The notes under the pieces are model-generated. The model was not told the origin of the DNA. It worked only from the letters and a program-made list of their open reading frames with translations, and did not search any database. A stretch of 64,000 nt of DNA from Raja brachyura (Eukaryota): assembly GCA_963514005.1 (NCBI GenBank), contig OY740787.1:38254001-38318000 (forward strand), given 5' to 3'. A program made the position numbers and the translations under genes. Positions 2,516 to 58,564 of this stretch are shown here, piece after piece; the first letter of the stretch is position 1; each line of letters begins with the position of its first letter.

Positions 2516-2780
2516 GGGTGCATTTTGTAAGGTGGTATGCTTCTTGTTCCATTAATGCTGGACCAGTACTCCTGCTGGTTTTCAGTGTTATCTCCTTCTC
2601 CACTGTACGATATTTGAAAATATTGGTGAATCGTTTCTTCTAACTACCTAATAACCTCTTCTTGCGACACAGCTCAGAACAGAGTGTTCATTTTGGATGT
2701 TTGACATTGAGCCTGTGAGTGTTGTGGTTGTCCACTGGAGTTAACAGCATGTAACTTGGGCCTCAGTGCTGGGAATATTG

Positions 2781-18754: not shown

Positions 18755-19935
18755 TCAGAAAACATGTAGCAGCACAGCACAGGAATAGACCCTTCAGCCC
18801 ACAATGTCTGTGCTGAACATGATGCCAAGTTAAACTAATCTCCTTTGCCTGCACGTGATCTATATCCCTCCATTGCTTGCATATCCATGTGCCTAAAAAG
18901 CTCTAAAATGCTACTATATCTGCCTTCATCACCACTTTTCACAACACATTCCAGACACCCACCATTCTCTGTGCAAAAAAAATGCCCAGCACATGTGCTT
19001 TAAACTTTTCTGTCCTAACATAAAGCTATGCCCTCTAGTGTTTAATATGTTAGCTTTCATAGCAAAAGGATTTGAGTATAGGAGCAGGGAGGTTCTACTT
19101 CAGTTGTATAGGGTCTTGGTGAGGCCACACCTGGAGTATTGCGTACAGTTCTGGTCTCCAAATCTGAGGAAGGACATTATTGCCATAGAGGGAGTGCAGC
19201 GAAGGTTCACCAGACTGATTCCTGGGATGTCAGGACTGTCTTATGAACAAAGACTGCATAGACTCGGTTTATACTCTCTAGAATTTAGGAGATTGAGAGG
19301 GGATCTTATAGAAACTTACAAGATTCTTAACGGGTTGGACAGGCTAGATGCAGGAAGATTGTTCCCGATGTTGGGGACGTCCAGGACAAGGGGTCACAGC
19401 TTAAGGATAAGGGGGAAATCCTTTAGGACCGAGATGAGAAGGAATTTTTTCACACAGAGAGTGGTGGGTCTCTGGAATTCTCTGCCACTGAGGGTAGTTG
19501 AGGCCAGTTCATTGGATATATTTAAGAGGGAGTTAGATGTGGCCCTTGTGGCTAAGGGGATCAGAGGGTATGGAGAGAAGGCAGGTACGGGATACTGAGT
19601 TGGATGATCAGCCATGATCATATTGAATGGCGGTGCAGGCTCGAAGGGCCGAATGGCCTATTCCTGCACCTAATTTCTATGTTTCTATGTTTCTATATTT
19701 CCACCCTATCTATGCCATTCATAATTTTATATACTTCTATCTGGTCTCTGCTCAACCTCCAATGCTCCAGAGGAAACAATCCATATTTGTTCATCTTTCC
19801 TAATAGCTAATACCATGTAATCCAGGCAGCATTCCGGTAAGCCGAATTTGCCCCCTCTTCAAAGCCTCCACATCATTCCTATATTCGGACAACCAGAACT
19901 GCACGTTGTACTCCAAATGTGGCCTGACCAAAGTC
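18755..19935 (-). mobile_element. Older CR1 3' fragment, interrupted by a younger CR1 at 19043-19695
   Basis: Minus strand encodes LVRPHLEYNVQFW...RNDVEALKRGQIRLTGMLPGL; tail at ~18760. Confidence 0.75.
19043..19695 (+). mobile_element. Young 5'-truncated CR1 with intact ORF2 C-terminus
   Basis: ORF 18993-19598 contains MLAFIAKGFEYRSREVLLQLYRVLVRPHLEYCVQFWSP...GYGEKAGTGY*; same family as the full-length copy; (tttctatg)n tail. Confidence 0.93.
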
Positions 19936-22749: not shown

Positions 22750-23425
22750 TTAAGTACTGATGTGTCTTTTGGGGAACTCAGTGCTCCTAACCAGTTGTCA
22801 TTCTTAGAGTAACCCCAAACTCTGTTATAGCTCAACTCTGTAAATTAGTAAGATTAAACGAGAACTTACCTGTTCGAAGTTTGATCTTTATTTTATGAGG
22901 AGTTACGATGAGGGATTACGTGAAGAAGCCCCGCCTGGTGCTTGATCAGCATACTTCAAAGCAGCGGCATGAAAAACACAGAACCAATAGCCGGAGTAAT
23001 ATAGTAAGGCTCAACATAGACTAGAACTACCAGATGAACATTTATATTATGAGGGCTGGGAGCGGAGGGAATGTAATCCCTCATCGTAACTCCTCATAAA
23101 ATAAAGATCAAACTTCGAACAGGTAAGTTCTCGTTTAATCCTACTATTTTACTTCGGAATCACGTGAGTGACTACGTGAAGATTTTAAAGCTCTGTTTTT
23201 TATGTCGTAGATTCATTCCATACGACACTCTGTTTAGTCAATACAGTAGTGAGTAAATAATATTTTTTTAAACATTGTTTCAATTTATGTAATAAGTCTT
23301 TTAATCATAAAAAGAACATTTTTTAAAATAATAACCCCTGTATCCCAGGGGAAAAAATTTACAACAAAAGTGATAATGATATTAATTTTATAACATAAAT
23401 CGATAATATAAAACAAAGCAAGCAT

Positions 23426-24335
23426 TTAAAGCGAACCCAACACTGCATGTCCAAATCCTGGCACCGTGACAACAGGTTTATCGTAGAACTTTGGAAAAGT
23501 TTCTTCTTTACACCACCCTGCGGCCTCTAAAATTTGATCGAGTGGTATGTCCTGTACCTTCGCCGTGGACGCAGCTGCAGCCCTAGTGGAGTGATACTTA
23601 AACACATCAGTGTCCACTCCTGCTAAATCCAAAACCTGTTCTAACCATCTAGAAATGGTTTGAACTGCAACTTTTGTATGTGGTTTTTTGTGCGTTATCA
23701 GTAACGCTGTCTCAGCACCTCGGAGATTTTTGGTTACGTCAATATATTTAGTTAAATGCTTAACTACACACAATGTTTCATCGACAGGGTTTCCTATAAA
23801 CATTACCTGGGGTCTAGTTTTTCCTAGTCTGCTTTGTTTGATCAGATCATAAACATAAAACACAATGTTACCTGAAGCCACATGCATGCAATCTAACCGT
23901 AACAATTGCAAAGTTTGAGCAGCTCTTTGAGCTGAAACTAATGCCATTACATTACTACCTTGAATGTTAACCTTTGCAAAGACATTGAAGTAATTGGAGT
24001 CCATTGCCTAAGCAAAGTGAGAACAATGCTAACATCCCAAATTTCTGTATCTCTGGGCTTGGGAGGATTTTTATTAAAAATTCCTTTCATGAACCGGGAT
24101 ATTAATGGGTGAAACCCAATTGAATCTCGATCAGAAATTTGTCCTAAGTAGGACGACAATGCACTATAACTTAAGTGCTCATCAAAATGCAACCCAGCAA
24201 GGAACTCCAATACATTTGATATGTTCGCAGTATGATAAGATATCTTTGACTGTCTACAGAAGACTTCCCATTTCTTTATATGCGACACATATTGTTTTTA
24301 GTGCTATTTCTCCAAGCTGCAGCTATAACATCCAT
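23426..24335 (-). pseudogene. DIRS tyrosine recombinase (frameshifted)
   Basis: ORFs 23947-24288 and 23426-24004: ...ALVSAQRAQTL..., HSTRAAAAS (HxxR), AAGW, FPKFYDK (catalytic Tyr region). Confidence 0.9.
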
Positions 24336-24374
24336 GGTCCTATCTGACAGTCTAAGCTCTTGCAATGGTCTGGT

Positions 24375-24940
24375 CAGAACCTGCAGATTAACAAATTCAT
24401 ATGATCATGCAATGGATGAATTTATTTTGTTACTGGTTGTATCAACAATCGTTGCAACTAGGAATCGTCATACATGGTTCAATAATCATTTTAAGCATCA
24501 ACGGGAACCATGATTGTGTAGGCCAATTTGGCCCCACCAAAACGCCCTTGGCAGCGTCTTGCGCTATTTTCTTGAGACATTGCCCAATCAGACAGAATGG
24601 GGGAAAGGCATAAAAGAAAGTATTCCCCCAGTGTAGCGAGAAAGCATCCACCGCTACTGCCCCTGGATCGTGTTCTCATGACACGTATTTGGGCAATAGG
24701 TGATTTAATCTAGATGCAAACAGATCAATGTCTGGTACTCCAACCGACTGACAATATTTTTGAAAATTTGTGGATTTAACATCCATTCTGTACTGTCTTT
24801 ACATTTTCGTGATCTTTGGTCTGCCACAATATTGTCTCTCCCTGGAGACAAATAGCTGAAAACCGAATATTCTTACCAATACACCAATGCGACACCTGGT
24901 TAACCAGATGATCACATGATAATGATCTTACTCCACTCAT
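24375..24940 (-). pseudogene. DIRS RNase H end and DNA N6-adenine methyltransferase-like domain (frameshifted)
   Basis: IDLFASRLNH at ~24700-24730 and DAFSLHWGNTFFYAFPPF...PNWPTQSWFP in ORF 24442-24651. Confidence 0.8.
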
Positions 24941-26267
24941 GTGATTGATATATATGCCACAGCTGTGGTATTGTCTACTTGTAATTGGACATGCAAATCC
25001 TTCATAGTAGAACAATAAACTTTTAATCCATAAAATGCTCCCAGTAACTCCAAAGAATTTATACCATATGTTTGGAGCAATAAATCCTCTTGGACAGTCC
25101 ATCTGCCCCCACAGCTGGAATCATTATCCGTAACACCCCATCTGAGAGAACTTGCACCAGTTTGCAAAATCACTGCTGGCTGCTGAACCAAAATGTTTTT
25201 AACAGCTTGTGGAACATTCTCAATCCACCAATGCAATTCTAATAAAGCTTCCTTTGGTAATTGCATGGGCCTATCAAAATGGCCTGCTCGCTCTATAAGC
25301 GCTTGTGTTTTTGCCCTTTTGAGATTTTGGTAATGCTGTGGACCAAATTCTACTGCAGGGAATGCTGCTACTAACTTACCAATAACCTTAGCAACTTCTC
25401 GGATGGAGGGATAAGGTTTGTCAATAAGGCACTGACATACATTTGTAATATCAACAATCTTGTCTATTTGTAAAGTTACTAACATGGTAACTGAATTAAT
25501 CACAAACCCCAAATATTCAACAGTTTGGGATGGCTGTAACTTAGATTTTGTTGGATGAATCAGGAAACCTAGCCTTACAAACAGGCTTGTAGTCACCGAG
25601 ACTGATTTTTCAGCTGACTCCTGATTAGCATTGACAATTAAAATGTCATCTAGATAAGCCATAACGATGTGTTTTTGTGCCCTTAGCAGTGCAAGTGCTG
25701 GTTTCAACAATTAGTGAACAACCTAGTGAACAACCTAGGAGCTGAGCTTAATCCATTAGGTAATGTTTTGTATTACCACAGCTGTCCCATCCAATTAAAT
25801 TTCAATACCTGCGAAAGTGGCGATGAATTTGCACTGAATAATATGCATCCTTCAAATCTATTGTAGCCATGTCACAATCTGTTGAAACCAGCTGCATTGC
25901 AGTGTTGAAGGTATCCATTTTTAAATGTTTATACTGGACAAATGTATTAAAATGTGTGAGGTCTAAAATGATTCTACAACCCCCATTCCCCCTAAAATGA
26001 TTCTATAACCATCTTTATTTGGTCTGGGGAAAATATTTGATACAAATTGTTGTGGATCCTCACTTGATTTCTCGATAACTCCTTTTTTACACCAATTCTT
26101 AACTTCTTTAACAATTTGAATTTTTTCAAATACAGAAAACACCAAATACGATTAGGCTTATTCTGTCCTGATGGATCAATACCTTCTATAAAATCAATGG
26201 TAGATCCTAAGACAGTACCGAATATAACACGGTCAGATGTTATACAGTCCCTTTTAACATAACACAT
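24937..26267 (-). pseudogene. DIRS reverse transcriptase / RNase H (disrupted)
   Basis: FVSNIFPRPNKDGYRIIL, AYLDDILI, VEYLGFVINS, INSLELLG, VDNTTAVAYI motifs; several frameshifts and small duplications. Confidence 0.9.
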
Positions 26268-32024: not shown

Positions 32025-33529
32025 CGCTGTGGGGGAGGGGGCGTGTGAGGGTGGGGGGGCTGTTTATGTGGGGGAGGGGTGTGTGGGGGTGGTTTGGGTG
32101 GGGGAGGTGGTGGTGTGGGCGGGGGGCGGAGTGGTGTGGGGGGGAGAGGGTGGTGTGGGCGGGGGATGGGGTGATGTGGGGGGGAGAGGGAGTGGCGTGT
32201 GGGGGGGACGGAGTGGCCTGTGGGGGGGAGGGAGTGTTGTGGGGGGGAAGGAGTGGCGCGTGGGGGTGATGGAGTGGCGTGGGGAGGAGTGGCATAGGGG
32301 GGGAAGGAGTGGCATGGGGGGGAAGGAGTGGCATGGGGGCGTGATGGAGCGGCGTGGGGGGAAGGAGTGGCATGTGGGGGTGATGGAGTGGCATGGGGGG
32401 GAAGGAGTGGCGTGGGGGGATGGAGTGGCGTGGGGGGAAGGAGTGGCGTGTGGGGGGAGGGAGTTCCATGTGGGGGTGATGGAGTGGCGTGGGGGGTGAT
32501 GGAGTGGTGTGGGGGGTGATGGGGTGGCGTGGGGGGTGATGGAGTGGCGTGGGGGGTGATGGAGTGGCGTGGGGGGGAAAGAGTGGCATGGGGGGGTGAT
32601 GGAGTGGCGTGGGGGGAGGGAGTTCCGTGTGGGGGGAGGGAGTTCTGTGTGAGGGGAGTGAGTTCCGTGTGGGGGGAGGGAGTGGCATGTGGGGGGAAGG
32701 AGTTCCGTGTGGGGGTAATGGAGTGGTGTGGGGGGGTGATGGAGTGGCGTGGGGGGTGATGGAGTGGCGTGGGGGGTGATGGAGTGGCGTGGGGGGTGAT
32801 GGAGTGGCGTGGGGGGTGATGGAGTGGCGTGGGGGGTGATGGAGTGGCGTGGGGGGGGATGGAGTGGCGTGGGGGGGGATGGAGTGGCGTGGGGGGGGAT
32901 GGAGTGGCGTGGGGGGGGATGGAGTGGCGTGGGGGGGATGGAGTGGCGTGGGGGGGGATGGAGTGGCGTGGGGGGGGATGGAGTGGCGTGGGGGGGGATG
33001 GAGTGGCGTGGGGGGTGATGGAGTGGCGTGGGGGGTGATGGAGTGGTGTGGGGGGAGGAATGGGGGTGGGGAAAAGAGGGAGTATGGGTGTGTGGGGGTG
33101 TGTGGGGTGGGGGGGGACCACTCAGCGGCCACCGGCATGGCACCACACTGCACCTCCCAATTCCACACAGCGGCTTTCCCGACTCCACACAGCAGATTTC
33201 CCGACTCCACTCTTGCGGACCCAATCAGCACGGCTTGCTTACTCAGCCCCGCCTCCGGGTCTTTATTCTCCAGCAGGTGCCGGAAGGGACATTACCTTCA
33301 TGGTGACAGACAGGCAAGAAGTCCAATCTCTGCTGATCTCATAACTTTTTAAACCTTCATAATTTTTCCCATATTCACTGATCGGAACAAATCTTGGTGG
33401 GTTGGACCAGAGAAGAACGGTGAGTAAGATGGCAAAATAATCCTAGTGATATAGGGTAGCATTTGTGTGCAAATTTAATTAAACGCAGACCAGAAGTGGT
33501 CAAGATGAGAGTTTTAGTAATAGTATAGA
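32025..33529 (-). mobile_element. Non-autonomous Helitron-like element (3' end not found)
   Basis: Minus strand begins A|TCTATACTATTACT at 33530/33529; 33240-33525 is homologous to 48195-48470, which belongs to an element ending in hairpin+CTAG. Confidence 0.65.
32028..33115. repeat. G-rich minisatellite, 20-bp unit GGGGGGTGATGGAGTGGCGT
   Basis: Near-perfect tandem units at 32720-33045, more degenerate toward the left. Confidence 0.95.
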
Positions 33530-34665: not shown

Positions 34666-35550
34666 TCTCGCAGTACATGAAGAAGTGAATGGAACCAGCA
34701 TTGTCTGTCAGATCTAAACTGCATTATCAAGGTCTTCTGCTGCACAATTCTCCCGTGTAATTATATATTTCCTTGACATCACCACTGAATGATTCTCAAG
34801 CCACTTCAGACTAATTGTTTTACCCCATTTTCCCACTTGGTTCTTTTGCCACTTACTTAAATTCTATGTATTCCATTAACATCTCTCATACTTATGATCA
34901 TCTCTCTTAAATCACCGGTCGACACAAAATACTGGAGTACTCAGCGGGACAGACCGCATCTCTGGAGACGTCTTGGGTCAAGATCTTTCTTCAAACTGAT
35001 GTCAAGGGAATGGACGGGACAGAGATAGAATGTAGTCGGAGATAGTCAGACAGGTGGAAGAACTGAGAAGGGGGATGGGATGGAGAGAGAGGGAAAGCAA
35101 GGGCTATTTGAAGTTAGAGAAGTCAATGTTCCTACCGCTGGGTTTTAAGCAACCCCAAAGGAAATACGAGGTGCTGTTCCTCCAATTTGTGTTGGGTCAG
35201 ATTGGGAATGGGAGGTGTCTTGGACATGGGTAGGGAGGGATTGGACCGGAGTTGAGGTATGTCTAAATTAATTTGATGGGACATGAACAAGCGGAAACAA
35301 TGGGTCTGCCAGGACAGTTGTGTTTGGGGATTTTGGGGAGAAGATAAAATCGGGCCGTGTGGGCCTGGGGAATGATAAGGTTGGAAGCTTTAGAGGGCAG
35401 AGAACCGGAAGTAGTTAAAATCAGAAATGGTGTGTGATATTAAGGTCTGGTACTGGGGCCATGGTCCAAGGATAAGTAGGAGGAGGTGTCAGAGTTGTCG
35501 CCTGGCCTCAGCCCGGTAGCTGTCGGTGGGTTTGATTATCAAGTCTTATC

Positions 35551-36264
35551 ACTCAGTCTTCCCGTGGATTTTGAAGCAACAGCAACAAAGAGAAGCAGGA
35601 GAAAGCACTGATTGGCTCTAGCCCAAGTGGGAGGAGAGTTCTCAGTGAGTCAGAGGGGGAGAGCAGTTAAAAAGGAGAGGCAAAGCACAGGCAGACTTCA
35701 CTCAGTCTTCCCGTGGATTTTGAAGCAACAGCAACAAAGAGAAGCAGGAGAAAGCACTGATTGGCTCTAGCCCAAGTGGGAGGAGAGTTCTCAGTGAGTC
35801 AGAGGGGGAGAGCAGTTAAAAAGGAGAGGCAAAGCACAGGCAGACTTCACTCAGTCTTCCCGTGGATTTTGAAGCAACAGCAACAAAGAGAAGCAGGAGA
35901 AAGCACTGATTGGCTCTAGCCCAAGTGGGAGGAGAGTTCTCAGTGAGTCAGAGGGGGAGAGCAGTTAAAAAGGAGAGGCAAAGCACAGGCAGACTTCACT
36001 CAGTCTTCCCGTGGATTTTGAAGCAACAGCAACAAAGAGAAGCAGGAGAAAGCACTGATTGGCTCTAGCCCAAGTGGGAGGAGAGTTCTCAGTGAGTCAG
36101 AGGGGGAGAGCAGTTAAAAAGGAGAGGCAAAGCACAGGCAGACTTCACTCAGTCTTCCCGTGGATTTTGAAGCAACAGCAACAAAGAGAAGCAGGAGAAA
36201 GCACTGATTGGCTCTAGCCCAAGTGGGAGGAGAGTTCTCAGTGAGTCAGAGGGGGAAAGCAGTT
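35551..36264 (+). repeat. 149-bp tandem monomers (~4.8 copies) forming the CR1 5' UTR
   Basis: Unit starts at 35551, 35700, 35849, 35998 and 36147; the full units look identical; each carries ATTGG (reverse CCAAT) and TGAGTCA. Confidence 0.95.
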
Positions 36265-36463
36265 CCTCAAAACTGAGGAATTTGGTTTGTAAATTAGGCA
36301 ATTGAACAGTCAATATAAGCAAGGCAGCTCTTGGGGAGAGGCAGTGAGGGAGTGGTCTTGTGAGGGAAGTGCCCTGTGAGTAAAGTGTGAGTCTTTGGCT
36401 CGAGAGTCTTCGGCGAGGAGGCTGCGCAAAATACTGGATAGGGCGAGACCGAGGCAAAAGAAG

Positions 36464-37390
36464 ATGTCAAGCAAGCTGATGCAGTGTGATGCTTGCAGTA
36501 TGTGGGAGGTCAAGGACACTGCTGGTGCCTCTGGATGCTACAAATGTGAGAAGTGCATCCAGGTACAGCTCCTGAAGGACCGTGTTGGGGAACTGGAGAA
36601 ACAAGTGGATGACCTCAGGTTCATTCGAGAAACTGAGTCGTTTCTCGACAAGTCCTTCAGTGAGATTGTTACACCCAAGGCACTAGAAGAGAGAAGGTGG
36701 GTGACGGTGAGAAAGGGAGGAAAACATGGGATGCAAAGGTCCCCGGGTGTTGTACCTCTTGTGAACAGGTTCACCCACGTGGAAGCTGCCGGGACAGAAG
36801 ACGGTATCCCACTGAGCGGCGGACTGGCTTGCCAAACAAAAAGGGCTGATGAGCCAAACCCACAGAGGCCAAAGTCGGGCAACGCCATTGTAGTTGGAGA
36901 CTCCATTGTGAGAGGTACGGACAGGGGTTTTTGCGGCAACAGACGGGATTCCAGGATGGTGTGCTGCCTTCCTGGTGCCAGGATCCAGGATGTTACGGAC
37001 AGAGTGCAGACAATCCTCAAGGGCGAAGGTGACCAGCCGGAAGTGGTCGTGCATGTTGGCACAAATGATGTTGGAAAGAAGGAGATTAATTTTTTGCAGC
37101 GGGACTTCAGAGAGCTCGGAAAAATGCTGAAAAGCAGGACTTCCAGGGTTGTTATCTCCGGTTTGCTTCCAGTTCCTCGTGCTGGCGAGAGCAGGAACAG
37201 GGTGATATGGGACCTGAATGTGTGGCTGAGGAACTGGTGCAGGGGGCAGGGATTTAGATTCTTAGATCACTGGGATTTTTTTTATAGTAAGGGGGAACTG
37301 TACAAAAGGGATGGATTGCATCTTAACAGGTGGGGGACCAGCATTCTGGCCGGCAGGTTTGCCACTGCTACACGGATGGTTTTAAACTGA
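36464..37390 (+). CDS. CR1 ORF1p: zinc finger/coiled coil plus SGNH (GDSL-like) esterase domain
   Basis: CDAC...CEKC followed by heptad LLKDRVGELEKQVDDL; GDSIVR, HVGTND and DGLHLN blocks; first ATG at 36464 (ORF track starts 36395). Confidence 0.93.
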   Translation: MSSKLMQCDACSMWEVKDTAGASGCYKCEKCIQVQLLKDRVGELEKQVDDLRFIRETESFLDKSFSEIVTPKALEERRWVTVRKGGKHGMQRSPGVVPLVNRFTHVEAAGTEDGIPLSGGLACQTKRADEPNPQRPKSGNAIVVGDSIVRGTDRGFCGNRRDSRMVCCLPGARIQDVTDRVQTILKGEGDQPEVVVHVGTNDVGKKEINFLQRDFRELGKMLKSRTSRVVISGLLPVPRAGESRNRVIWDLNVWLRNWCRGQGFRFLDHWDFFYSKGELYKRDGLHLNRWGTSILAGRFATATRMVLN

Positions 37391-40305
37391 ATAAGGGGGG
37401 TGGGGTATCAAATGGGATAGTCGAGGACGGAGTTAGAGGGAAAGAGAGTAAAGCGATGGTTAATGACCCCAGAATTAACGGGGAAGAAAGCTCACAAAGA
37501 GATAGGAGAGTATGGCCAAGTGTAATAGGGATCGATGTGAAAGGGGCCACTTGTCAACATAATTGTATAAGGAGTAAGAGTGTTGTAAAAACAAGCCTGA
37601 AGGCTTTGTGTCTCAATGCGAGGAGCATTCGTAATAAGGTGGATGAGTTGAAGGTGCAGATAGCGATTAATGACTATGCTATAGTTGGAATCACGGAGAC
37701 TTGGCTCCAGGATGACCAAGGCTGGGAGCTGAACATCCAGGGATATTCAATATTCAGGAGAGATAGACGAAAAGGAAAAGGAGGTGGGGTAGCGTTGCTG
37801 GTGAGAGAGGAGATTAATGCAATAGAAAGGAAGGACATTAGCGTGGAGGATGTGGAATCGATATGGGTAGAGCTGCGAAACTCTAAGGGGCAGAAAACGC
37901 TAGTGGGAACTGTGTACAGGCCACCTAACAGTAGTATTGGAGTTGGGGATGGCATCAAACGGGAAATTAGAAATGCGTGCAACAAGGGTAACACGGTTAT
38001 AATGGGTGACTTCAATCTGCATGTAGATTGGGTGAATCAAATTGGCAGGGGTGCTGAGGAAGAGGATTTCCTGGAATGTATGCGGGATAGTTTTCTCAAC
38101 CAACATGTGGAGGAACCAACGAGAGAGCAGGCTATTCTAGACTGGGTATTGAGTAATGAGGAAGGGTTAGTTAGCAGTCTTGTTGTGCGTGGCCCCTTGG
38201 GCAAGAGTGACCATAATATGGTTGAGTTCTTCATTAGGATGGAGAGTGACAAAATTAAGTCAGAAACAAGGGTTCTGAACTTGAACAAAGGTAACTTTGA
38301 AGGTATGAGATGTGAATTGGCCAAGATAGACTGGCAGGTGATTCTTAAAGGGTTGACAGTGGATGTGCAATGGAAGGTATTTAAAGACTGCATGGATGAA
38401 GTACAAAAGTTGTTCATACCAGTTTGGCAAAAGAATAAATCGGGGAAGGTGGTGCATCCATGGATAACAAGGGAAATCAGGGATAGTATAAAAACAAAAG
38501 ATGAGGCATACAAATTTGCCAGAAAAAGCAGCCTACCGGAGGACTGGGAGAAATTCAGAATCCAGCAGAGGAGGACAAAGGGCTTAATTAGGAAAGGGAA
38601 AATAGATTATGAAAGGAAACTGGCAGGGAACATAAAAACTGACTGCAAAAGTTTTTATAGATATGTAAAGAGAAAGAGACTAGTTAAAACAAATGTTGGT
38701 CCCTTGCAGTCAGAAACAGGTGAATTGATCATGGGGAACAAGGACATGGCAGACCAATTGAATAACTACTTTGGTTCTGTCTTCACTAAGGAAGACATAA
38801 ATAATCTGCCGGAAATAGCAGTGGAACGGGGGTCAAATAAGATGGAGGAACTGAGTGAAATCCAGGTTAGCCGGGAGGTGGTGTTGGGTAAATTGAACGG
38901 ATTGAAGGCCGATAAATCCCCAGGGCCAGATAGTCTGCATCCCAGAGTACTCAAGGAGGTAGCCACAGAAATAGTGGATGCATTAGTGATAATTTTTCAA
39001 AATTCCTTAGATTCTGGAGTAGTTCCTGAGGATTGGAGGGTAGCTAATGTAACCCCACTTTTTAAAAAAGGAGGGAGAGAGAAAGCGGGGAATTACAGAC
39101 CAGTTAGTCTAACATCGGTAGTGGGGAAACTGCTAGAGTCAGTTATTAAAGATGGGATAGCAGCGCATTTGGAAAGTGGTGAAATCATTGGACAAAGTCA
39201 GCATGGATTTACGAAAGGTAAATCATGTCTGACAAATCTGATAGAATTTTTCGAGGATGTAACTAGTAGAGTGGATAAGGGAGAACCAGTGGATGTGTTA
39301 TATCTAGACTTTCAGAAGGCTTTCGACAAGGTCCCGCATAAGAGATTAGCATACAAACTTAAAGCACACGGTATTGCGGGTTCAGTATTGATGTGGATAG
39401 AGAACTGGCTAGCAGACAGGAGGCAAAGGGTAGGAGTAAACGGGCCCTTTTCAGAATGGCAGGCAGTGACTAGTGGGGTGCCGCAAGGCTCAGTGCTGGG
39501 ACCCCAGCTATTTACAATATATATTAATGATTTGGACGAGGGAATTCAATGCAACATCTCCAAATTTGCAGATGATACCAAGCTGGGGGGTATAGTTAGG
39601 TGTGAGGAGGATGCTTGGAGGCTGCAGGGTGATTTGGATAGGCTGAGTGAATGGGCAGATGCATGGCAGATGCAGTACAATGTGGATAAATGTGAGGTTA
39701 TCCACTTTGGTGGCAAAAACATGAGGGTAGACTATTATCTGAATGGTGGCAGATTAGGTAAGGGGGAGATGCAACGAAACCTGGGTGTCATGGTACACCA
39801 GTCATTGAAAGTAGGCATGCAGGTGCAGCAGGCAGTGAAGAAAGCAAATGGTATGTTAGCATTCATAGCGAAAGGATTTGAGTTTAGGAGCAGGGAGGTT
39901 CTACTGCAGTTGTACAGGGTTTTGGTGAGGCCACACCTGGAGTACTGCGTACAGTTTTGGTCTCCAAATCTGAGGAAAGACATCCTTGCCATAGAGGGGG
40001 TACAGAGAAGATTCACCAGACTGATTCCTGGGATGTCAGGACTTTCATATGAGGAAAGATTGGATAGACTCGGTTTGTACTCGATGGAATTTAGAAGATT
40101 GAGGGGGGATCTTATAGAAACCTACAAAATTCTTAAGGGGTTGGACAAGCTAGATGCTGGGAGATTGTTCCCGATGTTGGGGGAGTCCAGAACAAGGGGT
40201 CACAGTCTAAGGATAAGGGGGAATTCCTTTAGGACCGAAATGAGGAAAACATTCTTTACAGAGAGTGGTGAGTCTCTGGAATTCTCTGCCACAGAAGGTA
40301 GTTGA
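37330..40305 (+). CDS. CR1 ORF2p: APE endonuclease plus reverse transcriptase (C-terminal frameshift near 40260)
   Basis: LNARS, GITETW, YRPP, GDFN, SDH endonuclease motifs; NYRPVSL, QHGF, DFQKAFD, GVPQGSVLGP, FADD RT motifs. Versus the 19043 copy it lacks 2 nt at ~40260; the family stop would be 40400-40402. Confidence 0.95.
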   Translation: MGDQHSGRQVCHCYTDGFKLNKGGGVSNGIVEDGVRGKESKAMVNDPRINGEESSQRDRRVWPSVIGIDVKGATCQHNCIRSKSVVKTSLKALCLNARSIRNKVDELKVQIAINDYAIVGITETWLQDDQGWELNIQGYSIFRRDRRKGKGGGVALLVREEINAIERKDISVEDVESIWVELRNSKGQKTLVGTVYRPPNSSIGVGDGIKREIRNACNKGNTVIMGDFNLHVDWVNQIGRGAEEEDFLECMRDSFLNQHVEEPTREQAILDWVLSNEEGLVSSLVVRGPLGKSDHNMVEFFIRMESDKIKSETRVLNLNKGNFEGMRCELAKIDWQVILKGLTVDVQWKVFKDCMDEVQKLFIPVWQKNKSGKVVHPWITREIRDSIKTKDEAYKFARKSSLPEDWEKFRIQQRRTKGLIRKGKIDYERKLAGNIKTDCKSFYRYVKRKRLVKTNVGPLQSETGELIMGNKDMADQLNNYFGSVFTKEDINNLPEIAVERGSNKMEELSEIQVSREVVLGKLNGLKADKSPGPDSLHPRVLKEVATEIVDALVIIFQNSLDSGVVPEDWRVANVTPLFKKGGREKAGNYRPVSLTSVVGKLLESVIKDGIAAHLESGEIIGQSQHGFTKGKSCLTNLIEFFEDVTSRVDKGEPVDVLYLDFQKAFDKVPHKRLAYKLKAHGIAGSVLMWIENWLADRRQRVGVNGPFSEWQAVTSGVPQGSVLGPQLFTIYINDLDEGIQCNISKFADDTKLGGIVRCEEDAWRLQGDLDRLSEWADAWQMQYNVDKCEVIHFGGKNMRVDYYLNGGRLGKGEMQRNLGVMVHQSLKVGMQVQQAVKKANGMLAFIAKGFEFRSREVLLQLYRVLVRPHLEYCVQFWSPNLRKDILAIEGVQRRFTRLIPGMSGLSYEERLDRLGLYSMEFRRLRGDLIETYKILKGLDKLDAGRLFPMLGESRTRGHSLRIRGNSFRTEMRKTFFTESGESLEFSATEGS

Positions 40306-41031
40306 GGCCAGTTCATTGGCTATATTTAAGAGGGCGTTAGATGTGGCACTTGTGGCTAAAGGGATCAGGGGGTATGGAGAGAAGGCAGGTACGGGATACT
40401 GAGTTGGATGATCAGCCATGATCACATTGAATGGCGGTGCAGGCTCGAAGGGCCGAATGGCCTACTCCTGCACCTATTTTCTATGTTTCTATGTTTCTAA
40501 GTCAGGGTTGCTGCAGAGTGAGCGGAGGGCTGTACATTCATGGGGGAGAGGTTAGAGTAAGTAAGGCGAGTAGAAAGGTTGAGGCAGTTGATGTCCCACC
40601 GGTAGTCGGAAATGAAAAGGTCTAAAGTAGGTAGAGAGCCATTCGGGAGAGTCTAAGAGGAGGGGGTCTGGTGGAGACAGGAGAAGGGGTCATCGCTGGG
40701 TGGTGAGGACCTCTTCCCATAGAAATAGGCATGGAGGCGGAGGTGACGGAAGAAGAACTTTAGATCATGGCAGACCTGGAACTCGTTGAGGTAGGGGCGG
40801 AGGGGAACAAAGGTGAGGCCTCTGCTGAGGACAGATCGTTCCGTATCAGAAAGGGGGAAGTCAGAGGGGATGGTGAATGCACGGCAAATGGTAAATCCCT
40901 TTTACTTTCTCCATGCTAAAAAGAGAAAACCAGGTCTGCTTAATGGATAACATGGGTTACAACTTAAATCTTATTCTGGGCCTACTGTGTTCCTCTTCTG
41001 ACAGATCAGAACATTAGTATGAAACTAAGGT

Positions 41032-41237
41032 AGACTAAAATGCTGGAGAAACTCAGCGGGTGCGGCCGCGTCTATGGAGCGAAGGAAATAGGCAACGTTT
41101 CGGACCAAAACCCTTCTTTAGGGTTTTGGCCCGAAACGTTGCCAATTTCCTTCGCTCCATAGATGCTGCCGCACCCGCTGAGTTTCTCCAGCAATTTTGT
41201 CTACCTTTGATTTTCCAGCAACTGCAGTTCCTTCCTC
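41032..41237. mobile_element. Penelope-derived fold-back element with TSD
   Basis: Inverted arms of ~85 bp meeting at cccttcttta|gggtttt; direct repeat AGTATGAAACTAAGGT at 41016-41031 and 41238-41253. Confidence 0.88.
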
Positions 41238-41808: not shown

Positions 41809-42934
41809 ATATCAGGATCCTTTCGGAGAGTGAAATTGTCTTTCAAGTGCAGCAATAGATCAATTGAACAATCATCTAGTGAGGGTCCATTATTACAGAG
41901 AAATTGTTGGAATGAATCATCTTTTAGTTACATTGCCTCTAGTGCTTCGGGGAGATGAGTGTAGGCTGTGATGATTCTCAATGAGTTCCTGTCACTTTCT
42001 CCTGTGGGGAGTTTGTCCACCTGTCCGCTGTGTCTGACCTTACTTGTTAAAGATTGGGAGTACTTTGTTGTCAATAAGTGCAGCCAGTAATCACCTTAGA
42101 GGTGGCAGTGGCACCCTGAAAATGAAGCCGAGTTTAAAAAAAGACAAGTAGCTGGATTCTCGGACCTTGGCTTTCTGGCCAAGCAAGAATCTTCAGCTAG
42201 GTGACAGTTGTTGCAGGATATTTTATTACAATTGTAGGCTGTGAATTAATGAAGGAATGTAAAATACAGTATAATTCTAAACCTAATGTACGGCAGGGAA
42301 TGAGTTACAGACTAGTCTAATCAAGGACTTTATATAATGTGTAGTAATAAAGATATGGAGCTGTACAGCACGGAAACAGGCCCTTAGGGCTACCTTTCCC
42401 ATGCCAACGTTTAGCATGCTGGGCTGATCCCATTTACCTGCATTTGGCCTATGGCCCTCGAAAACTTATGTATCCATATAGCTGTTCAAGGCTGGTGGAT
42501 ACCAGAGAATGAATTACAGGCAGAAATGTAATTTTACTTCGGAGTCACGCGAGTGACTAGGTGAAGAAGCCCCACCAGGCGGATGCTCGGCATTACGTCG
42601 ACGCATGTCGGTAAGGAATGGGCTGCAGATCGCAGCTCCACCAGCGGTGAGTAACAGGCCCGCAGGTAAGTGGGTTGAAATTACTTCCTGGGTAGAAACT
42701 CCGTGACGCTGGCTGGAATAGCCAAGGTGAGTTGGGAAGTTTAAAAAAATAATAATTTTTAAAAATGGACACGGTAAAAAAAATCGGTGCGGGGAAAGCG
42801 CGTCCCGGCTGGAAACACATTTAAGATCGGGACCACAGATTAGTACGGAGCCGGTTCCAATACCGGTAGCCGTTGACCCTGCCGTAGTTCAGCCTTTAGA
42901 TGCTCCACAGCCACAGGCCACGAAGGGTACTCCA

Positions 42935-43562
42935 GTGGAGGACTTGCATGTTCAATTACAAGTAGACAATACCACAGCTGTAGCATATATCAATTACATG
43001 GGTGGAGTAAGATCAGTATCATGTGATCATCTGGTCAACCTGATGTGGAATTGGTGTGTATCTAGGAATATCTGGCTTTCAGCTATCTATCTCCCAGGGA
43101 AAGACAATGTTGTGGCAGACAACAGATCACGGGAGTTTAAACACAATACAAAATGGATGTTAAATCCACAAATTTTCCAAAAAATTGTCAATCGGTATGG
43201 TGTACCAGACATTGATCTGTTTGCGTCCAGATTAAATCACCAATTGCCTAAATACGTGTCATGGGAGCCTGACCCAGGAGCTGTAGCATTGGAAGCATTC
43301 TCGCTACATTGGGGAATTTTCTATGCTTTTCCCCCATTTTTGCCTGATTGGGCAATACCTCAGTAAAATAGAGCAAGACTCTGCCACGAGTGTTTTGGTG
43401 GTTCCAAACTGGCCTACACAGCCATGGTTCCCATTGATGCTTAGAATGATAATTGAACCATTTATGACGATTCCCAGCTCCAGGGATTTGTTGGTACAAC
43501 CAGTGACCGAACAAGTTCATCCATTGCATGATCATATGAATTTGTTCATCTGCAGGTTCTGA
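42935..43562 (+). pseudogene. DIRS RNase H end plus methyltransferase-like domain (frameshifted)
   Basis: ORFs 42935-43366 and 43323-43562: NVVADNRSR, IDLFASRLN, EAFSLHWG.FYAFPP, VPNWPTQPWFP. Confidence 0.85.
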
Positions 43563-43600
43563 CCAGACCATTACAAGGGCTTGGACTGTCGGATAGGACC

Positions 43601-44524
43601 ATGGATGTCATAACGTCAGCTTGGAGAGACAGCACTAAGAAACAATATGTCTCACATAAAGAAATGGTAAGTTTTTTGTACTGTCAGATATATCTTATCA
43701 TACTGCAAACATATCGGATGTATTGGTGTTCCTTGCTATGTTACATTTTGATGAGCACCTTAGTTATAGTGCCATTAATAGCGCTCGTAGTGCTTTGTAT
43801 TCCTATTGACGACAATTTTCAGAACATCTATCTATCGGGTCTCATCCATTAATATCACGATTTATGAGAGGGATTTTAATTAAAAAAATCCTCCCAAACC
43901 CAGATATAAAGAAATTTGGGATGTTAGTATAGTTCTCACATTGCTTCAGCAATGGGCTCCAATTACGTCACTGTCTTTTCAGAAATTAACATTTAAAGTA
44001 GTAATGCTTATGGCATTAGTGTCAGCACAAAGAATACAAACATTGCGAATGTTACGTTTAGATTGTATGCATTTGTCTGCAGATAACATTACTTTTTATG
44101 TTTATGATCTAATCAAACAAAGCAGACTGGGGAAGTCTGGAACCAAGACTCTTTAGAGCATATCCAGTCGACCAAACATTGTGTGTGGTTAAGCATCTGA
44201 CTCAATATATTGAAGTAACCAAGAGTCTCAGAGGTTGTGAGACAACAATGCTTATTGCCCATAAAAAACCATACAAAAAAGTATCAGTACAAACTATTTC
44301 TAGATGGTTAAACAGGTTTGGATTTGGCTGGAGTAGACACTGATGTGTTTAAATCCCACGCCACCAGGGCAGCGTCCACGTCCGCGGCGATGGCACAGGA
44401 CGTGCCGCTCGACCAAATTTTAGAGGCCGCAGGGTGGTGTAAAGAAGAAACTTTTTCCAAGTTTTACAATAAACCTGTTATCATGGTGCCAGAGTTTGGA
44501 CATGCAGTGTTGGGTTCTGTTTGA
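43601..44524 (+). pseudogene. DIRS tyrosine recombinase (frameshifted)
   Basis: AWRDSTKKQY, LVSAQRIQTL, HATRAASTS, AAGW, FSKFYNK. Confidence 0.88.
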
Positions 44525-45302
44525 TTATTTGTTTTCTTTTATGTAATGATTCATATCTTTTGTTGTAATTTCCCCTATGATAGAGGGGTATTACTTTTCT
44601 TTCTTTTATTATTATTAAAATACTTATTGCATTATTCAAGCAATGTTCAATAATATTATTTACTCACTACTGTGTCAACTGAAGCAGTGTGTCGTATGGA
44701 CTGAATCTACAGCATGAAAATCACAGAGCTTCAAAATCTTCACATAGTCACTCACGTGACTCCGAAGTAAAATAGTAAGATTAAACGAGAACTGACCTGT
44801 TCGAAGTTTGATCTTTATTTTATGAGGAGTTACGATGAGGGATTACATGCCCTCCGCTCCCGACCCTCATAATCTAAACTATCATCTGGTAGTTCTAGTC
44901 TTGTGTGAGCCTTACTATCTTACTTCAGCTATTGGTTCTGTGATTTTCACGCCGCTGCTATGAAGTATGCCGAGCATGCGCCTGGCGGGGCTTCTTCACG
45001 TAATCCCTCATCGTAACTCCTCATAAAATAAAGATCAAACTTCGAACAGGTAAGTTCTCGTTTAATCTTACTATTAAATCTTAGTATGCTATATATACAC
45101 CAGTTGATAATGCAATCTGAGATTTGTGTTAATCAAGAGGCTTTGATGGTCTTTGATAACTTGCACCTTTGAGATTTAAGGGCAGCCGACCTTTGGTGGT
45201 GCTGGTGACCTGGCCTGTCATTTGGTACGATCCAGATTGAGAAGTGTGACCTGACTGTTTTCAGAGCACTCAGAGGCAAGAAAGAGATACCTCACTTTAG
45301 GA

Positions 45303-47535: not shown

Positions 47536-48474
47536 CTAGACTAAGTAGGAACCATTGGGTCCCAGTTACATGGGTGGCCTGGTCCCCCAACGCAACCCAT
47601 TCGCCAATGTGGGTGTGGGGGAAGGGGGAGTGGTGTGGGGAAGGGGGAGTGGTGTGGGGAAGGGGGAGTGGTGTGGGGAAGGGGGAGTGGTGTGGGGAAG
47701 GGGGAGTGGTGTGGGGGAAGGGGGGGTAATGGGCAGGAGGGTGATGGGGAGGGGGGGTGATGGGGAGGCCTGGTGGGGGGGGGAGGCCTGGTGGGGGGGG
47801 GGAGGCCTGGTGGGGGGGGGGAGGCCTGGTGGGGGGAGGCCTGGGGGGGGGGAGGCCTGGGGGGGGCGGGGGGGGGAAGGCCTGGGGGGGAGGCCTGGGG
47901 GGGGGGGAAGGCCTGGGGGGGACGGAGGGGGGGACGAGGGGGGTGGGTGAAGGGGGGGAGGTGAAAGGGGGGAGGTGAAAGGGGGGAGATGAAAGGGGGG
48001 AATGGAGGTGAAGGGGGGTGTCAGTGGTCACAGCAGATGCAGCTCACACTGCTCACCCTGCACTCTGCTCACCCAGTACCTTCAGCTTTCAGCCTCATGC
48101 AGTAGCTTCCGGTCCCACTCCGACTTCACTCAGAGCCTCGTTGTGCTTGTCACCACAGAAGCAGCCCGCTGCTCTCTGCCCGCACACTGCTCACGGACTC
48201 AGCTCCGCCTCTGGGGTTTTATTGTCCGCGTGTGCCAGGATGCGCATTACCTTCATGGTGACAGACAGGGGAGAAGACCAATCTGCTGATCTCACTATTT
48301 TTTAAACCTTCAAAACTTAAGTAATATTCCACTGATCGGAACAAAACTTGGTGTGCTTGGAGCAGAGAATGGTGAGTAAGGTGGTGAAAAAATACTATCT
48401 ATATATGGTCCCGTTTGTGCACAAATTTAAAAAAAATGCAAACGGGAAGATGAAAGTTTCAGTAATAGTATAAG
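47536..48474 (-). mobile_element. Non-autonomous Helitron-like element with G-rich minisatellite (47610-48020)
   Basis: Minus-strand 3' end gggacccaatggttcct (imperfect hairpin) acttagt CTAG|T at 47536; no TSD; 5' region homologous to 33240-33529. Confidence 0.72.
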
Positions 48475-52932: not shown

Positions 52933-55555
52933 ACCTCGGCTCGGCTCTTTACCTCGGAATCCTCCAAGATCATCTTCTGATCCAGGGTTCGCCATGTGGA
53001 GCAGGATGAGACGTGCTCACGTTTCTTCTTCCATAAGGTTCACAGGGGGAGCTCTGTGATGAACAGCCTTAGGGAGGAGGACGGCTCGGTAGCATTCTCA
53101 CAGACAGACATGCTGAGGATCTGCAAATCCTTTTACACAGATTTATATGACCAAAAGGCCACAGACAGTACCTCCTCCCAGAACTTCCTGTCCTTGATCA
53201 CGGAGGTCTTGGAGGACAGCAAGCGGGAGAGTCTGGACCAACCACTGACCCTAGAGGAGCTGACTGGCTCCATCCGTTCCTTTGACTCGAGTAAAACTCC
53301 CGGAAGCGATGGCTTACCGGCCGAGTTGTATTCGGCTCTGTGGGACTTGATGGGCCCGGACCTGCTAGAAGTGTACAACGACATGCTTCTAGCTGGTAGC
53401 ATGTCAGACTCCATGAGGAAGGGCAACATCACCCTAATCTACAAGCAGAAGGGGGAGATGAAGGACATAAAGAATTGGAGACCCATAACACTCCTGAATG
53501 TAGACTACAAGATCCTGTCTAAGGCCATCGCCAACCGGGTCAAGTCTGCTCTGGGACAGGTGATCCACCCGGACCAAACTTGTGCTGTACCTGGCAGGAA
53601 AATCTCAGACAGCCTAGCGCTGCTGAGAGATACCATCGCCTACGTGCAGGACAGACGGGTGGATGCCTGCCTAGTCAGCTTGGACCAGGAGAAGGCCTTC
53701 GACAGGATATCGCACACATACATGAGGGACGTGCTCTCTGAAATGGGTTTTGGGGAGGGAATCCGGAATTGGATCAAACTGCTCTACACCGACATCCGTA
53801 GTGCAGTCCAAATCAATGTGTGGAACTCAGACAGCTTCTCTGTAAGGTTTGGAGTCAGGCAGGGTTGCCTTCTCTCTCCTGTCTTGTTTGTCTGCTGTAT
53901 TAAACCCTTTGCCGAATCCATCAGGAAGGATGCGAGCATAGGAGGAGTGACACTGCCTGGCAATGGGGGCATTCAGGTAAAAACCTCCCTGTACATGGAC
54001 GATGTCGCCGTCATCTGCTCGGATCCAGGGTCGGTCCGCAGACTGATTAGGATCTGCGACCAGTTTGAGTCGGCCACGGGAGCCAGGGTGAACCACAGGA
54101 AGAGCGAGGCCATGCTCTATGGCAACTGGCCCGACAGATCTTCCGTCCCCTTCACCATCAAGCCTGACTTCTTGAAGGTGCTGAGGATCTGGTTCGGGGG
54201 GGCTGAGGCATGTAACTTGAATTGGCTGGAGCGGATAGCCAGGGTGGGGAGGAAGCTGGAGCTGTGGAGGCAACGCTCCCTCTCCATAACGGGAAAGAAT
54301 TTGGTCATCAGGTGTGAGGTGCTCTCGGGTCTGCTGTACTTGGCACAAGTGTGGCCTGTCCCTCCCTCCTACGCCACAGGGATCACCCGGGCCATTTTCC
54401 AGTTCATCTGGGGGTCGAGGATGGACCGGGTGCGACGGGCCACAATGTACAAGTCAGCGGACAACGGGGGTAAAAGCGTGCCCAACGTCGCTCTCATCCT
54501 GATGGCCACCTTTGTGTGTGGCTGCATCAGGCGGACTGTAGAGCCAAGGCACGTGAGCACCAAGTGTCACTACCTGCTGAGGTTCTACCTGTCCCCGGTG
54601 TTGCGAAGGATGGGCCTGGCGCAGATGCCACGCAAGGTGCCAGTCAGCTGGACACTGCCACCCCATCTGTCGTCTGTGGAAAGGTTCTTCCGGACCAACA
54701 CCTTTGACCACATGTCCATTGGGCGGTGGTCAGCACAGAATGTCCTGCAGGCACTGCAGGGAAAGGACTCGATGGTGGCGTGGTTCCCTGAGCAGACTGC
54801 CCAGCTTGTCTGGCAAAATGCCTCATCGCCAGAACTCACCAACAAGCACCAAGACCTGGCTTGGCTGGCGGTGAGGGGAGCCCTCCCAGTCAGATCCTTC
54901 CTGCACCGTCGGAACCTCACTGCCAGCACACGCTGCCCTCGGGACGGCTGCTATGGAGAGGAGACGGTTGCCCACCTCTTTGCAGTGTGGATTTGCTCAA
55001 AGAGTCTGGAGAAAAATGCAAGGGTCCCTGGTGCGCTTTATTCGAAACAGCTCCGTCACAGAGGACTCTGTGATTTACGGACTGTTCCCAGGGACACATT
55101 CAGAGACTGACATCGAGTGCTGCTGGAGGGTCATCAACTCGGTGAAAGACGCTCTTTGGTCTGCCCGAGCGTTGTTCACCACCCAGCAGAGCGAGATGTC
55201 CGTCGGGGAATGTTGCCGACTGGCCCACTACAGACTGCAGGAGTACGTGCTGAGGGACCCACTGAAGCTCGGTGCAGCCAACGCCAAGGCTCGGTGGGGG
55301 AGGGCCACAGCCTAAAGTCCTTCCGCTGCTGGACACGGGGGGCACGGTATGGTGGAGACACCCCTCAAAATAAGGGAAGGTATCACATACCAGGGGGCGC
55401 GGGTGGGGGATAGATTCGTGAAATTTGAGCAATGTATATAGATTGTACGGAACAATTTGTATAGCCTCCGAAAATGTCGGATGAATTTTTAGCACGGTTC
55501 ATGCATTGTATATATTTATTATTTGAATAAAGTCTATTTCGAAATTTAAAAAAAA
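52933..55555 (+). mobile_element. 5'-truncated Tx1-clade LINE with poly(A) tail and TSD
   Basis: TSD TCTGAACTCTTT at 52921-52932 and 55556-55567; AATAAA at ~55526 followed by an A-tract. Confidence 0.92.
52996..55315 (+). pseudogene. Tx1 ORF2 RT plus C-terminal zinc-knuckle region (truncated, frameshift near 54985)
   Basis: KTPGSDGLPAE, NWRPITLLNVDYKILSK, LDQEKAFDR, GVRQGC, YMDD, CPRDGC...ETVAHL; continues in ORF 54953-55315. Confidence 0.92.
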
Positions 55556-55849: not shown

Positions 55850-56620
55850 GTCACAGATAATAGTCCTACATACCAGAAACAAGGTCTTCGGCCCACCACA
55901 TCCATGCCAACCCCTCTGTCCATCTACACCAATCCCATTTGTCTGCCTAAGACTGCAACCTTTTTACCTTGCCCTATTTTAGCATCTGTCTAATATATCT
56001 CTTAAATGCAGTAATTGTATTTGATTCCACCATTCCTCTGGCAGCACGTACCAGATGTCAACCATATTGGTAAAACAGATCCTTCCAGTCCCCTTTAAGA
56101 ATCCTTTCTCTCAACTTAAACTGACACCTTTTGTTTATCATTCCACTGTCAAGGGAAAAGATTTTGGTTACCTTCTGATGTATGCCTTTCATCATTTTTT
56201 GTACCTCTGTCAGGTCACCCGTCACTCACCTTTGCTCCAGGAAAAACAAATATAGCGTATCCAACCTTGGGGAGTCCAGAACCAGGGGCCACAGTTTAAG
56301 AATAAGGAGTAAGCCATTTAAACAGAGACGAGGAAACACTTTTTCTCACAGAGTGGCGAATCTGTGGAATTCTCTGCCTCGGAGGGCAGTGGAGGCAGGT
56401 TCTCTGGATGCTTTCAAGAGAGAGCTAGATAGGGTTCTTAAAAATAGCGGTGTCGGGGGATATGGGGAGAAGGCAGGAACGGGGTACTGATTGGGGATGA
56501 TCAGCCATGATCACATTGAATGATGGTGCTGGTTCGAAGGACCGAATGGCCTACTCCTGCGTCTATTGCCTATTGTCTCCCCATAACTAAAGACCTCCAA
56601 TCCAAGTGAATCTCCTTCCC
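55850..56620. mobile_element. Old minus-strand CR1 fragment with a younger plus-strand CR1 tail inserted (~56266-56578)
   Basis: The inner piece encodes LGESRTRGHSLRI...GYGEKAGTGY* plus tail. Confidence 0.75.
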
Positions 56621-57510: not shown

Positions 57511-57717
57511 GTTATAAAGAAGGAACTGCAGATGCTGGAGAATCGAGGGTTACACAAAAAGCTGGAGAAACTCAGCGGGTGCAGCAGCATCTAAGGAGCG
57601 AAGGAGATAGGCGACGTTTCGGGTCGAGACCCTTCTTCAGACCCGAAACGTCGCCTATCTCCTTCGCTCCTTAGATGCTGCTGCACCCGCTGAGTTTCTC
57701 CAGCTTTTTGTGTAACC
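57511..57717. mobile_element. Young Penelope-derived fold-back element with TSD
   Basis: Perfect ~79-bp inverted arms (57547-57625, 57640-57718); TSD (C)ACAATACTCCAAT at 57497-57510 and 57718-57731. Confidence 0.92.
57613..57640 (-). ncRNA. Minimal type-I hammerhead ribozyme motif (Penelope-type)
   Basis: Minus strand CUGAAGA-A-GGGUC-UC-GACCC-GAAA-CG-UC: catalytic boxes, 5-bp helix II and palindromic ACGU in place of helix III. Activity untested. Confidence 0.65.
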
Positions 57718-58564
57718 CACAATACTCCAATTGTGGCCTTGCCATAGCAAACCAGGTAAGGAGCCTGTAATGAAGGACAACTCAGTGGTATAAGGCAGAA
57801 GGATTAGTGTCACTTCTGTATAAAGAGTCGTCACTATTCAGCGGCAAGCTCCAAGCTTTGGATGCCCTTTAAATGTCAGAGCTTAGAAGAGAAATACGTT
57901 TGCACAACTTTGCATTGTACTTTCCAGAACAAGCAGGCTCCAATTGGTTTTAATTGACTTTGAATTTCAAGCCAGGAACAGCAGTCTGAAACATTAATTT
58001 GAGTTGTTACTGGAACAGAAGCGCTGCTTCCATTAATGATGATAACAAACATGAAAGTGGAGCCAAGAGGAAACAAATAGGAGCTGTGTTGTCACGGGAG
58101 AAATAGTTTCATAACAGTGACCTGGATTACCCCTGACTATTGTCAGACACTCACCATTTTACAAAATACAGTAGGGATTGATCCCAATGTATCAGATTGC
58201 AGACTAACAGCAAAATGATTTATTAGAAGTCAAACCTCTGTTGCCCTGCCCTATGCTGCTGACTCTGGACTGGAAATGTTTCCATTTTAAAATCTTTTCT
58301 CTCATTCACAAATGCATTGCTCTCCTAATCTGTGAAATATCAGATCAGGAGAGCAATGATATGTGAGAGCAATGGGAGCTCTGCTACTTTCCAGGTAGCT
58401 TCCTGTACATCCTGATTTGGACTCAAGACTTTATTTTAGAAATGCAACGTGGAAAAGGCCCTTCGGCCCACCGACTCCACGCTGACCAGCGATCACCCCG
58501 TACACTGGCACTACCCTACACGCTAGGGACAATTACAGACAAACCTGTACGTCTTTGGAGTGTG

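Follow-up and report, generated by a model that had tools for sequence, protein, structure and literature searches.

Tandem 149-bp monomers at the 5' end of an ORF1-bearing CR1 element of the skate Raja brachyura: a putative promoter array

The locus studied here, a stretch of 64,000 nt of the Raja brachyura genome (GCA_963514005.1, contig OY740787.1, positions 38,254,001 to 38,318,000 of the forward strand; hereafter the window), contains a CR1-type LINE headed by a tandem array with a period of 149 bp, and raises the question of whether an element of this clade may carry its promoter as a series of monomers. Tandem monomer promoters are known from mouse and rat L1 (PMC5381506, PMC7778262, PMC6454616, PMC9022269), and an original prediction made from the sequence of the window had proposed an arrangement of that kind for this CR1. 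The element behind the array is composed as follows:

35541..35545, plus strand: left copy (AAGTC) of the target-site duplication (TSD), matching 40499-40503; the flanking frame resumes across it
36265..36463, plus strand: tether, 199 nt of unique sequence without ATG and with two GTGAGT hexamers
36464..37390, plus strand: ORF1, 308 aa, with N-terminal cysteines, a leucine-rich stretch and an SGNH/GDSL esterase domain
37456..40402, plus strand: ORF2, endonuclease and reverse transcriptase (RT), its frame shifted once near 40259-40263, some 47 codons short of the end
40425..40498, plus strand: 3' UTR stem-loop and short tail of 8-nt period
40499..40503, plus strand: right copy (AAGTC) of the TSD

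A TSD just before the start of the CR1 had been proposed, and AAGTC is indeed present on both sides, with the frame of the flanking element interrupted in between: on the minus strand, this frame continues as far as the right junction and is taken up again at the left one. The interrupted element is a decayed retroelement (around 35050-35545 and 40499-40900, minus strand), which we take to be Penelope-like from the appearance of its RT motifs. The product of ORF1 matched the profile PF13472 above its cut-off (E=2.8e-12), and its best relative of solved structure was an ORF1 protein (PDB 4c1b, E=3.7e-30). Among the named ones of its 166 relatives, a protein of Leucoraja erinacea (little skate; 83%) comes first, ahead of those from other skates, rays and sharks and, further down, from turtles, lizards and birds. 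One relative, 55% identical (P0020), bears the label of a Pseudomonas aeruginosa hydrolase and sits on a 4-kb contig; a bacterial assembly containing some shark or ray DNA is the probable reason. In ORF2, an APE endonuclease (PF03372 and PF14529, both above cut-off) and an RT (PF00078, E=6.5e-32) were recognized. The 3' stem-loop folds with z = -2.70, 2 of 200 shuffles being equally good, and the canonical 3' end of CR1, for which we looked, partly on the basis of general knowledge of the clade, for a stem-loop, a short tandem tail and no poly(A), is present. These features, from the esterase ORF1 and the APE-RT ORF2 to the 3' stem-loop with its tandem tail and the 5-bp TSD, bear out the claim that the array heads a CR1-type LINE; judged from its sequence, the element is young, full-length and near-intact. 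Its assignment to CR1 rather than L2 rests on the relatives of ORF1, on the tail and on the statement in PMC13343379 that chondrichthyan L2 elements have no ORF1.

Other repeats are found in the window. Fragments of CR1 3' ends, 63-94% alike to this CR1, lie at 19046-19695, 58565-58978, 56269-56573 and 59449-60493, along with shorter pieces, and those in the window all stop short of ORF1 and of the monomer. A pair of decayed elements related to each other (22846-25710, minus strand, and 42731-45073, plus strand) lies in opposite orientation at a distance of some 20 kb; they are DIRS-like, with an RT and a weak tyrosine-recombinase match. The element at 52981-55110, with a 709-aa ORF carrying RT and zf-RVT domains, is presumably of the L1/Tx1 type. 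Three copies of a non-coding element of about 1 kb (2775-3810, 6862-7900 and from 9385), 86-99% alike in parts and with similar ends, possibly represent a non-autonomous DNA transposon. A degenerate array with a period of about 35 nt (1655-2515), G-rich minisatellites at 32040-33100 (20-nt period) and 47612-48001 (19-nt period), and two related palindromes of about 190 nt (41022-41212 and 57536-57729; arms of 90-93 nt, 91-97% complementary) are also present.

The tandem array itself occupies 35549-36264, with 4.8 copies of a 149-nt period and 99% matches (TRF). The exact period thus stands as originally described, and so does the right end of the array, while its left end lies two bases further out than the 35551 given at first. 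As for the identity of the roughly 4.8 monomers, the units beginning at 35549, 35698, 35847 and 35996 are identical to the letter, but the fifth is a partial unit of 120 nt (36145-36264) and carries a single difference, at 36257. No copy of the unit was found by blastn elsewhere in the 64 kb. It contains one CpG (observed/expected 0.11). A head derived from a structured RNA or an snRNA was considered and discarded, as the unit gave no Rfam matches up to E=1 and its folding was no better than that of shuffled sequences (z = 1.18, 1.40 and -0.46). Counting from the tether outwards, as mouse monomers are numbered in PMC9022269, the array is divided as follows:

35549..35668, plus strand: monomer M5, farthest from the tether, without its initial 29 nt and starting at an initiator-like motif
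35669..35817, plus strand: monomer M4, consisting of a 29-nt spacer and a 120-nt core
35818..35966, plus strand: monomer M3
35967..36115, plus strand: monomer M2
36116..36264, plus strand: monomer M1, adjoining the tether, with one difference at 36257

The phase of the unit matters for the claim that the CR1 starts at a unit boundary, which is weakened by the analysis: the argument is circular, because the 5' end itself had been used to define that boundary. Taken from the 3' end of the array, the boundary falls after unit position 120 and before 121, which is 29 nt before the CR1 starts; numbered outwards from the tether, the outermost monomer is truncated at about position 30-33. The exact start is blurred by the following junction:

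35546..35551, plus strand: 5' junction, three bases unlike the repeat and three matching it, all six identical to the flank at 35536-35541

These six bases (TTATCA) repeat the flank, the first three (35546-35548) being mismatched to the array unit, so that the CR1's own sequence starts somewhere within 35549-35552. They are likely a short templated patch left by the joining, a reading for which our literature search on the chemistry of LINE junctions found no supporting paper. The interval of the start covers the A of an initiator-like motif; there are five such motifs per unit, and a random cut would meet one about once in eight times (5 x 4 nt / 149), which makes the 5' end weak evidence.

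In each unit, the reverse CCAAT box (ATTGG, position 63), the AP-1 consensus TGAGTCA (position 98) and the A/T run (7 nt, position 119) named in the original prediction are present, together with GGGAGG at position 81. The two best-defined are:

35608..35617, minus strand: predicted NF-Y site (reverse CCAAT), full consensus, recurring every 149 nt
35646..35652, strand undefined: predicted AP-1 site, overlapping a GTGAGT splice-donor-like hexamer, recurring every 149 nt

Their expectation by chance was evaluated with the commonly known NF-Y and AP-1 consensus sequences in 20,000 dinucleotide shuffles per unit and in 423 tiles of the window. The full NF-Y consensus appeared in 0.007 of the shuffles and 5 of the 423 tiles, that of AP-1 in 0.047 and 8, GGG(A/C)GG in 0.17 and 53, an A/T run of at least 7 in 0.055 of the shuffles, and a CCAAT core together with AP-1 in 0.003 of the shuffles and a single tile, values that overstate significance because the motifs were chosen after looking at the sequence. 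No YY1-like match was found in the 149-bp unit. Relative to the next start, the NF-Y site would lie at about -87, which is the usual distance for CCAAT boxes, the GC-like motif at -69 and AP-1 at -52; this spacing fits an upstream-type promoter, in which the sites of one monomer would serve the start in the next. The A/T run, placed about 30 nt before the next unit start in the original description, does not hold as a TATA-like element, for a search of the unit found no TATA consensus, and the family joints listed below carry a G at the first A of the run.

The same spacing can be read in another manner, since in a tandem every motif also lies downstream of a start (NF-Y at +60, AP-1 at +96). 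Each monomer might then be a self-contained internal promoter, formed by an initiator and downstream activators, in which case one unit would suffice and the extra ones would only raise output and insure against 5' truncation. LINEs as a rule have internal promoters (PMC6454616), and the outermost start of the present copy has no motifs upstream of it. We nevertheless regard this alternative as rather unlikely. The position of the NF-Y site, judged by the distance usual for CCAAT boxes, suits an upstream location better. In addition, activity in mouse is 3- to 30-fold higher when an M2 monomer precedes M1 (PMC9022269), so that upstream units matter even there.

The leader of 918 nt that precedes ORF1 is devoid of any ATG, as expected if transcripts starting in any monomer need scanning to reach ORF1. 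For one period plus the tether (348 nt), the absence of ATG was observed in 0.017 of dinucleotide shuffles and in none of 180 window tiles. The hexamer GTGAGT is present once per monomer (35645, 35794, 35943, 36092 and 36241) and twice in the tether (36376 and 36387), and some of the relatives of ORF1 are annotated as isoforms of host genes, which hints at exonisation.

To what extent the tandem layout is shared by other copies was examined in public sequencing runs. With 35546-36500 as query, 24 runs were listed, 15 of them with at least half of its words and under eight organism labels. The contigs of four of the 24 (X1, X3, X4 and X15) were compared with 36116-37300, which comprises one period, the tether and most of ORF1, with a likeness threshold of 85, a level at which, being under 95, some joints may derive from other repeats. 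A joint that returns to 36117 was read as a tandem junction. Among the listed joints, those of X1 came from 36264 (3 contigs, short side 25), 36258 (3 contigs, short side 19) and 36236 (1 contig, short side 47), those of X3 from 36264 (6 contigs, short side 49) and 36258 (2 contigs, short side 37), and that of X4 from 36258 (1 contig, short side 70). In X15 there was no such joint among those listed, and one contig carried 20 letters of the core end before 36117 as a loose end. Twelve contigs of X3 leave the compared stretch at 36264 with spacer-like letters, and contigs bridging core and tether, with small indels at 36265-36268, were found in X1, X3 and X15.

That the array might be an artefact of the assembly was a concern from the outset, and as far as the tandem junction goes it is answered by the head-to-tail junction in three of the four runs compared and the loose end in the fourth. 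The head-to-tail layout is common to other, diverged copies of the family, outside this assembly; X1 may be the assembly's own sample, X4, with 28 contigs at low depth, may be a non-skate library, and X15 is perhaps an RNA library. Contigs carrying the joint differ from the window at 20 of 147 letters (X1) and 11 of 102 (X4), i.e. they are about 10-14% diverged, and hence the tandem layout is older than this CR1 copy. The monomer array is thus a real, family-level feature of the ORF1-bearing skate CR1. As contigs collapse arrays, they show the junction and give no reading of monomer number or transcript starts; the summed contig depth of the monomer was 2.4-3.9 times that of the tether in X1, X3 and X15, which is not a copy number. 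Regarding the clustering of 5' ends anticipated in the original prediction, no place of many molecule starts appeared among the listed contig ends, which cannot show starts.

The number of units in the present copy is a separate matter. The A-run opens with an A at all four junctions of this copy, a position held by G in the listed family joints. From the letters compared, this suggests that a single unit gave rise to the array by expansion or homogenisation, although the exact form may exist among further matches. It could also be that the family usually has about two units and that the 4.8 seen here reflect expansion after insertion, or an error of assembly or polishing. In line with this, the four identical units share letters unlike those of unit 5 or of the listed joints, and the collapsed contigs give the junction and not the count. 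We hold such an inflated count to be very improbable: a single difference in 716 nt is expected of a young copy whose ORFs are almost intact, and the idea concerns copy number only, the junction existing outside this assembly. Among the matches listed, family members vary at positions 9-11, 77 and 115 of the unit and at no position inside the NF-Y or AP-1 sites; in X1, X3 and X4 the variation affects the second initiator-like motif (unit positions 5-11).

Other family members also show, at 36376-36410 of the tether, a tandem duplication of 35-44 nt (3 contigs of X1 and 4 of X3), the single version being present here. The family therefore duplicates pieces of its 5' UTR readily, and tandem duplications of 70-100 bp have been described in the 5' UTRs of several mammalian L1 elements (PMC5381506). 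From this perspective the array would be a neutral, satellite-like duplication carried along by the element, with the real promoter in a single unit or in the tether, and a free satellite made of the 149-bp unit could still exist. This account appears improbable to us, given the persistence of tandem junctions in contigs that are 10-14% diverged and the promoter-type motifs and ATG avoidance in the unit.

Wider contig collections were searched as well. A 22-nt motif of the monomer had no matches in the genome-contig and viral-contig collections. ORF1, used as a single protein, had none of 82 candidates confirmed in metagenome contigs, and as an alignment none of 44 in genome contigs and none of 86 in viral contigs. 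The alignment did identify 48 distant loci (24-52% identity) in metagenome contigs, in three of which TRF found arrays with a period of at least 30, located downstream of the match in L029 and degenerate in L036 and L048. No monomer-like array was detected by TRF in these 48 loci, many of which may lack the 5' end, and for this reason the result says nothing on the extent of the layout.

The CR1 monomer array probably serves as a promoter. For the more specific proposal that this skate CR1 family is transcribed from the array, in a layout of monomers, tether and ORF1 as in mouse L1 and in the upstream-type mode, we see an even chance. Under this upstream-type reading, Pol II would start at an initiator-like motif about 30 nt into each monomer, with help from the sites that lie 50-90 nt before it in the preceding period (NF-Y, GC-like and AP-1), which presumably act in that direction. 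The transcript would retain the activator sites of the monomer in which it started, so that the daughter copy could fire from the next start down, and each round of retrotransposition would tend to cost one unit. The array could be refilled by duplication, either through unequal crossing-over or through slippage at second-strand priming, in keeping with the models put forward for monomer gain in mouse, i.e. unequal crossing-over and expansion at second-strand priming (PMC6454616). A bolder version, which we offer as speculation of rather doubtful standing, is that a CpG-poor NF-Y/AP-1 promoter of the upstream type has arisen independently in an ORF1-bearing CR1 that is widespread in skates, and is kept there only through tandem repetition, each retrotransposition spending one monomer and duplication refilling the array, so that monomer number would be a clock of the generations remaining.

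What is given here is a structural description of tandem 5' monomers in an ORF1-bearing CR1, with a putative role as promoter. If this role is true, the same layout would have been reached, with other factors, in another vertebrate lineage and another LINE clade, that is, by convergence. How a LINE retains its promoter from one retrotransposition to the next, and how its monomers are replenished, are questions still discussed for mouse (PMC6454616), and the skate CR1 monomers would provide a natural test set for the upkeep of LINE promoters, in a group in which CR1 accounts for 22.7% of the genome of the little skate (PMC13343379, Table S4). A unit with a single CpG also raises the question of the route by which the host would silence it.

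With respect to known systems, the likeness to Drosophila HeT-A invoked in the original prediction fits poorly. In HeT-A, which is telomeric, a whole element standing next in tandem on the upstream side provides the promoter from its 3' UTR, whereas the repeats of the skate CR1 lie inside one dispersed element. The coding part and the 3' end resemble those of turtle PsCR1 and shark/ray HER1 (named in PMC3747384), with an esterase ORF1, an APE-RT ORF2, a 3' stem-loop with a tandem tail and a short TSD; no 5' monomer array was described for them in the literature found, a set outside which Repbase and the original papers fall. Closer to the array itself, a 2026 survey that included the little skate reports that some ORF1-less elements of the CR1 group have 1-5 species-specific subunits of 100-500 bp near the 5' UTR (PMC13343379, legend to Fig. 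4; the same sentence is found in the preprint 10.64898/2026.01.13.699120). The view that monomer promoters were undescribed for CR1 is thereby qualified as far as repeated 5' subunits are concerned, but it keeps its ground for the promoter: the main article does not use the words 'promoter', 'monomer' or 'tandem', nor the supplements the word 'subunit'. Those subunits are stated for ORF1-less elements only, and the skate CR1 has an intact esterase ORF1. No description of an array in an ORF1-bearing CR1, or of a promoter role for one, was found in a search that missed most subscription papers and Repbase.

The closest parallel is offered by the A, Tf and Gf types of mouse L1Md, in which a tether of about 200-250 nt stands between the tandem monomers and ORF1 (PMC7778262, PMC6454616, PMC9022269), the outermost monomer is cut part-way and there are a few units per copy; type A monomers have AP-1 sites, as the CR1 unit does. 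The proposed rodent-L1-style modular 5' UTR is consequently upheld in its layout of monomers, tether and ORF1, which is shared within the family, but not in its CpG-rich and YY1 features, which are absent. The mouse elements belong to the L1 clade and have CpG-containing monomers of about 200 bp, with YY1 in Tf and Gf, while the skate CR1 unit is of 149 bp, with one CpG, no YY1 match and a full NF-Y box. Mouse monomers are promoters by demonstration, and those of the skate CR1 are likened to them by layout and motifs.
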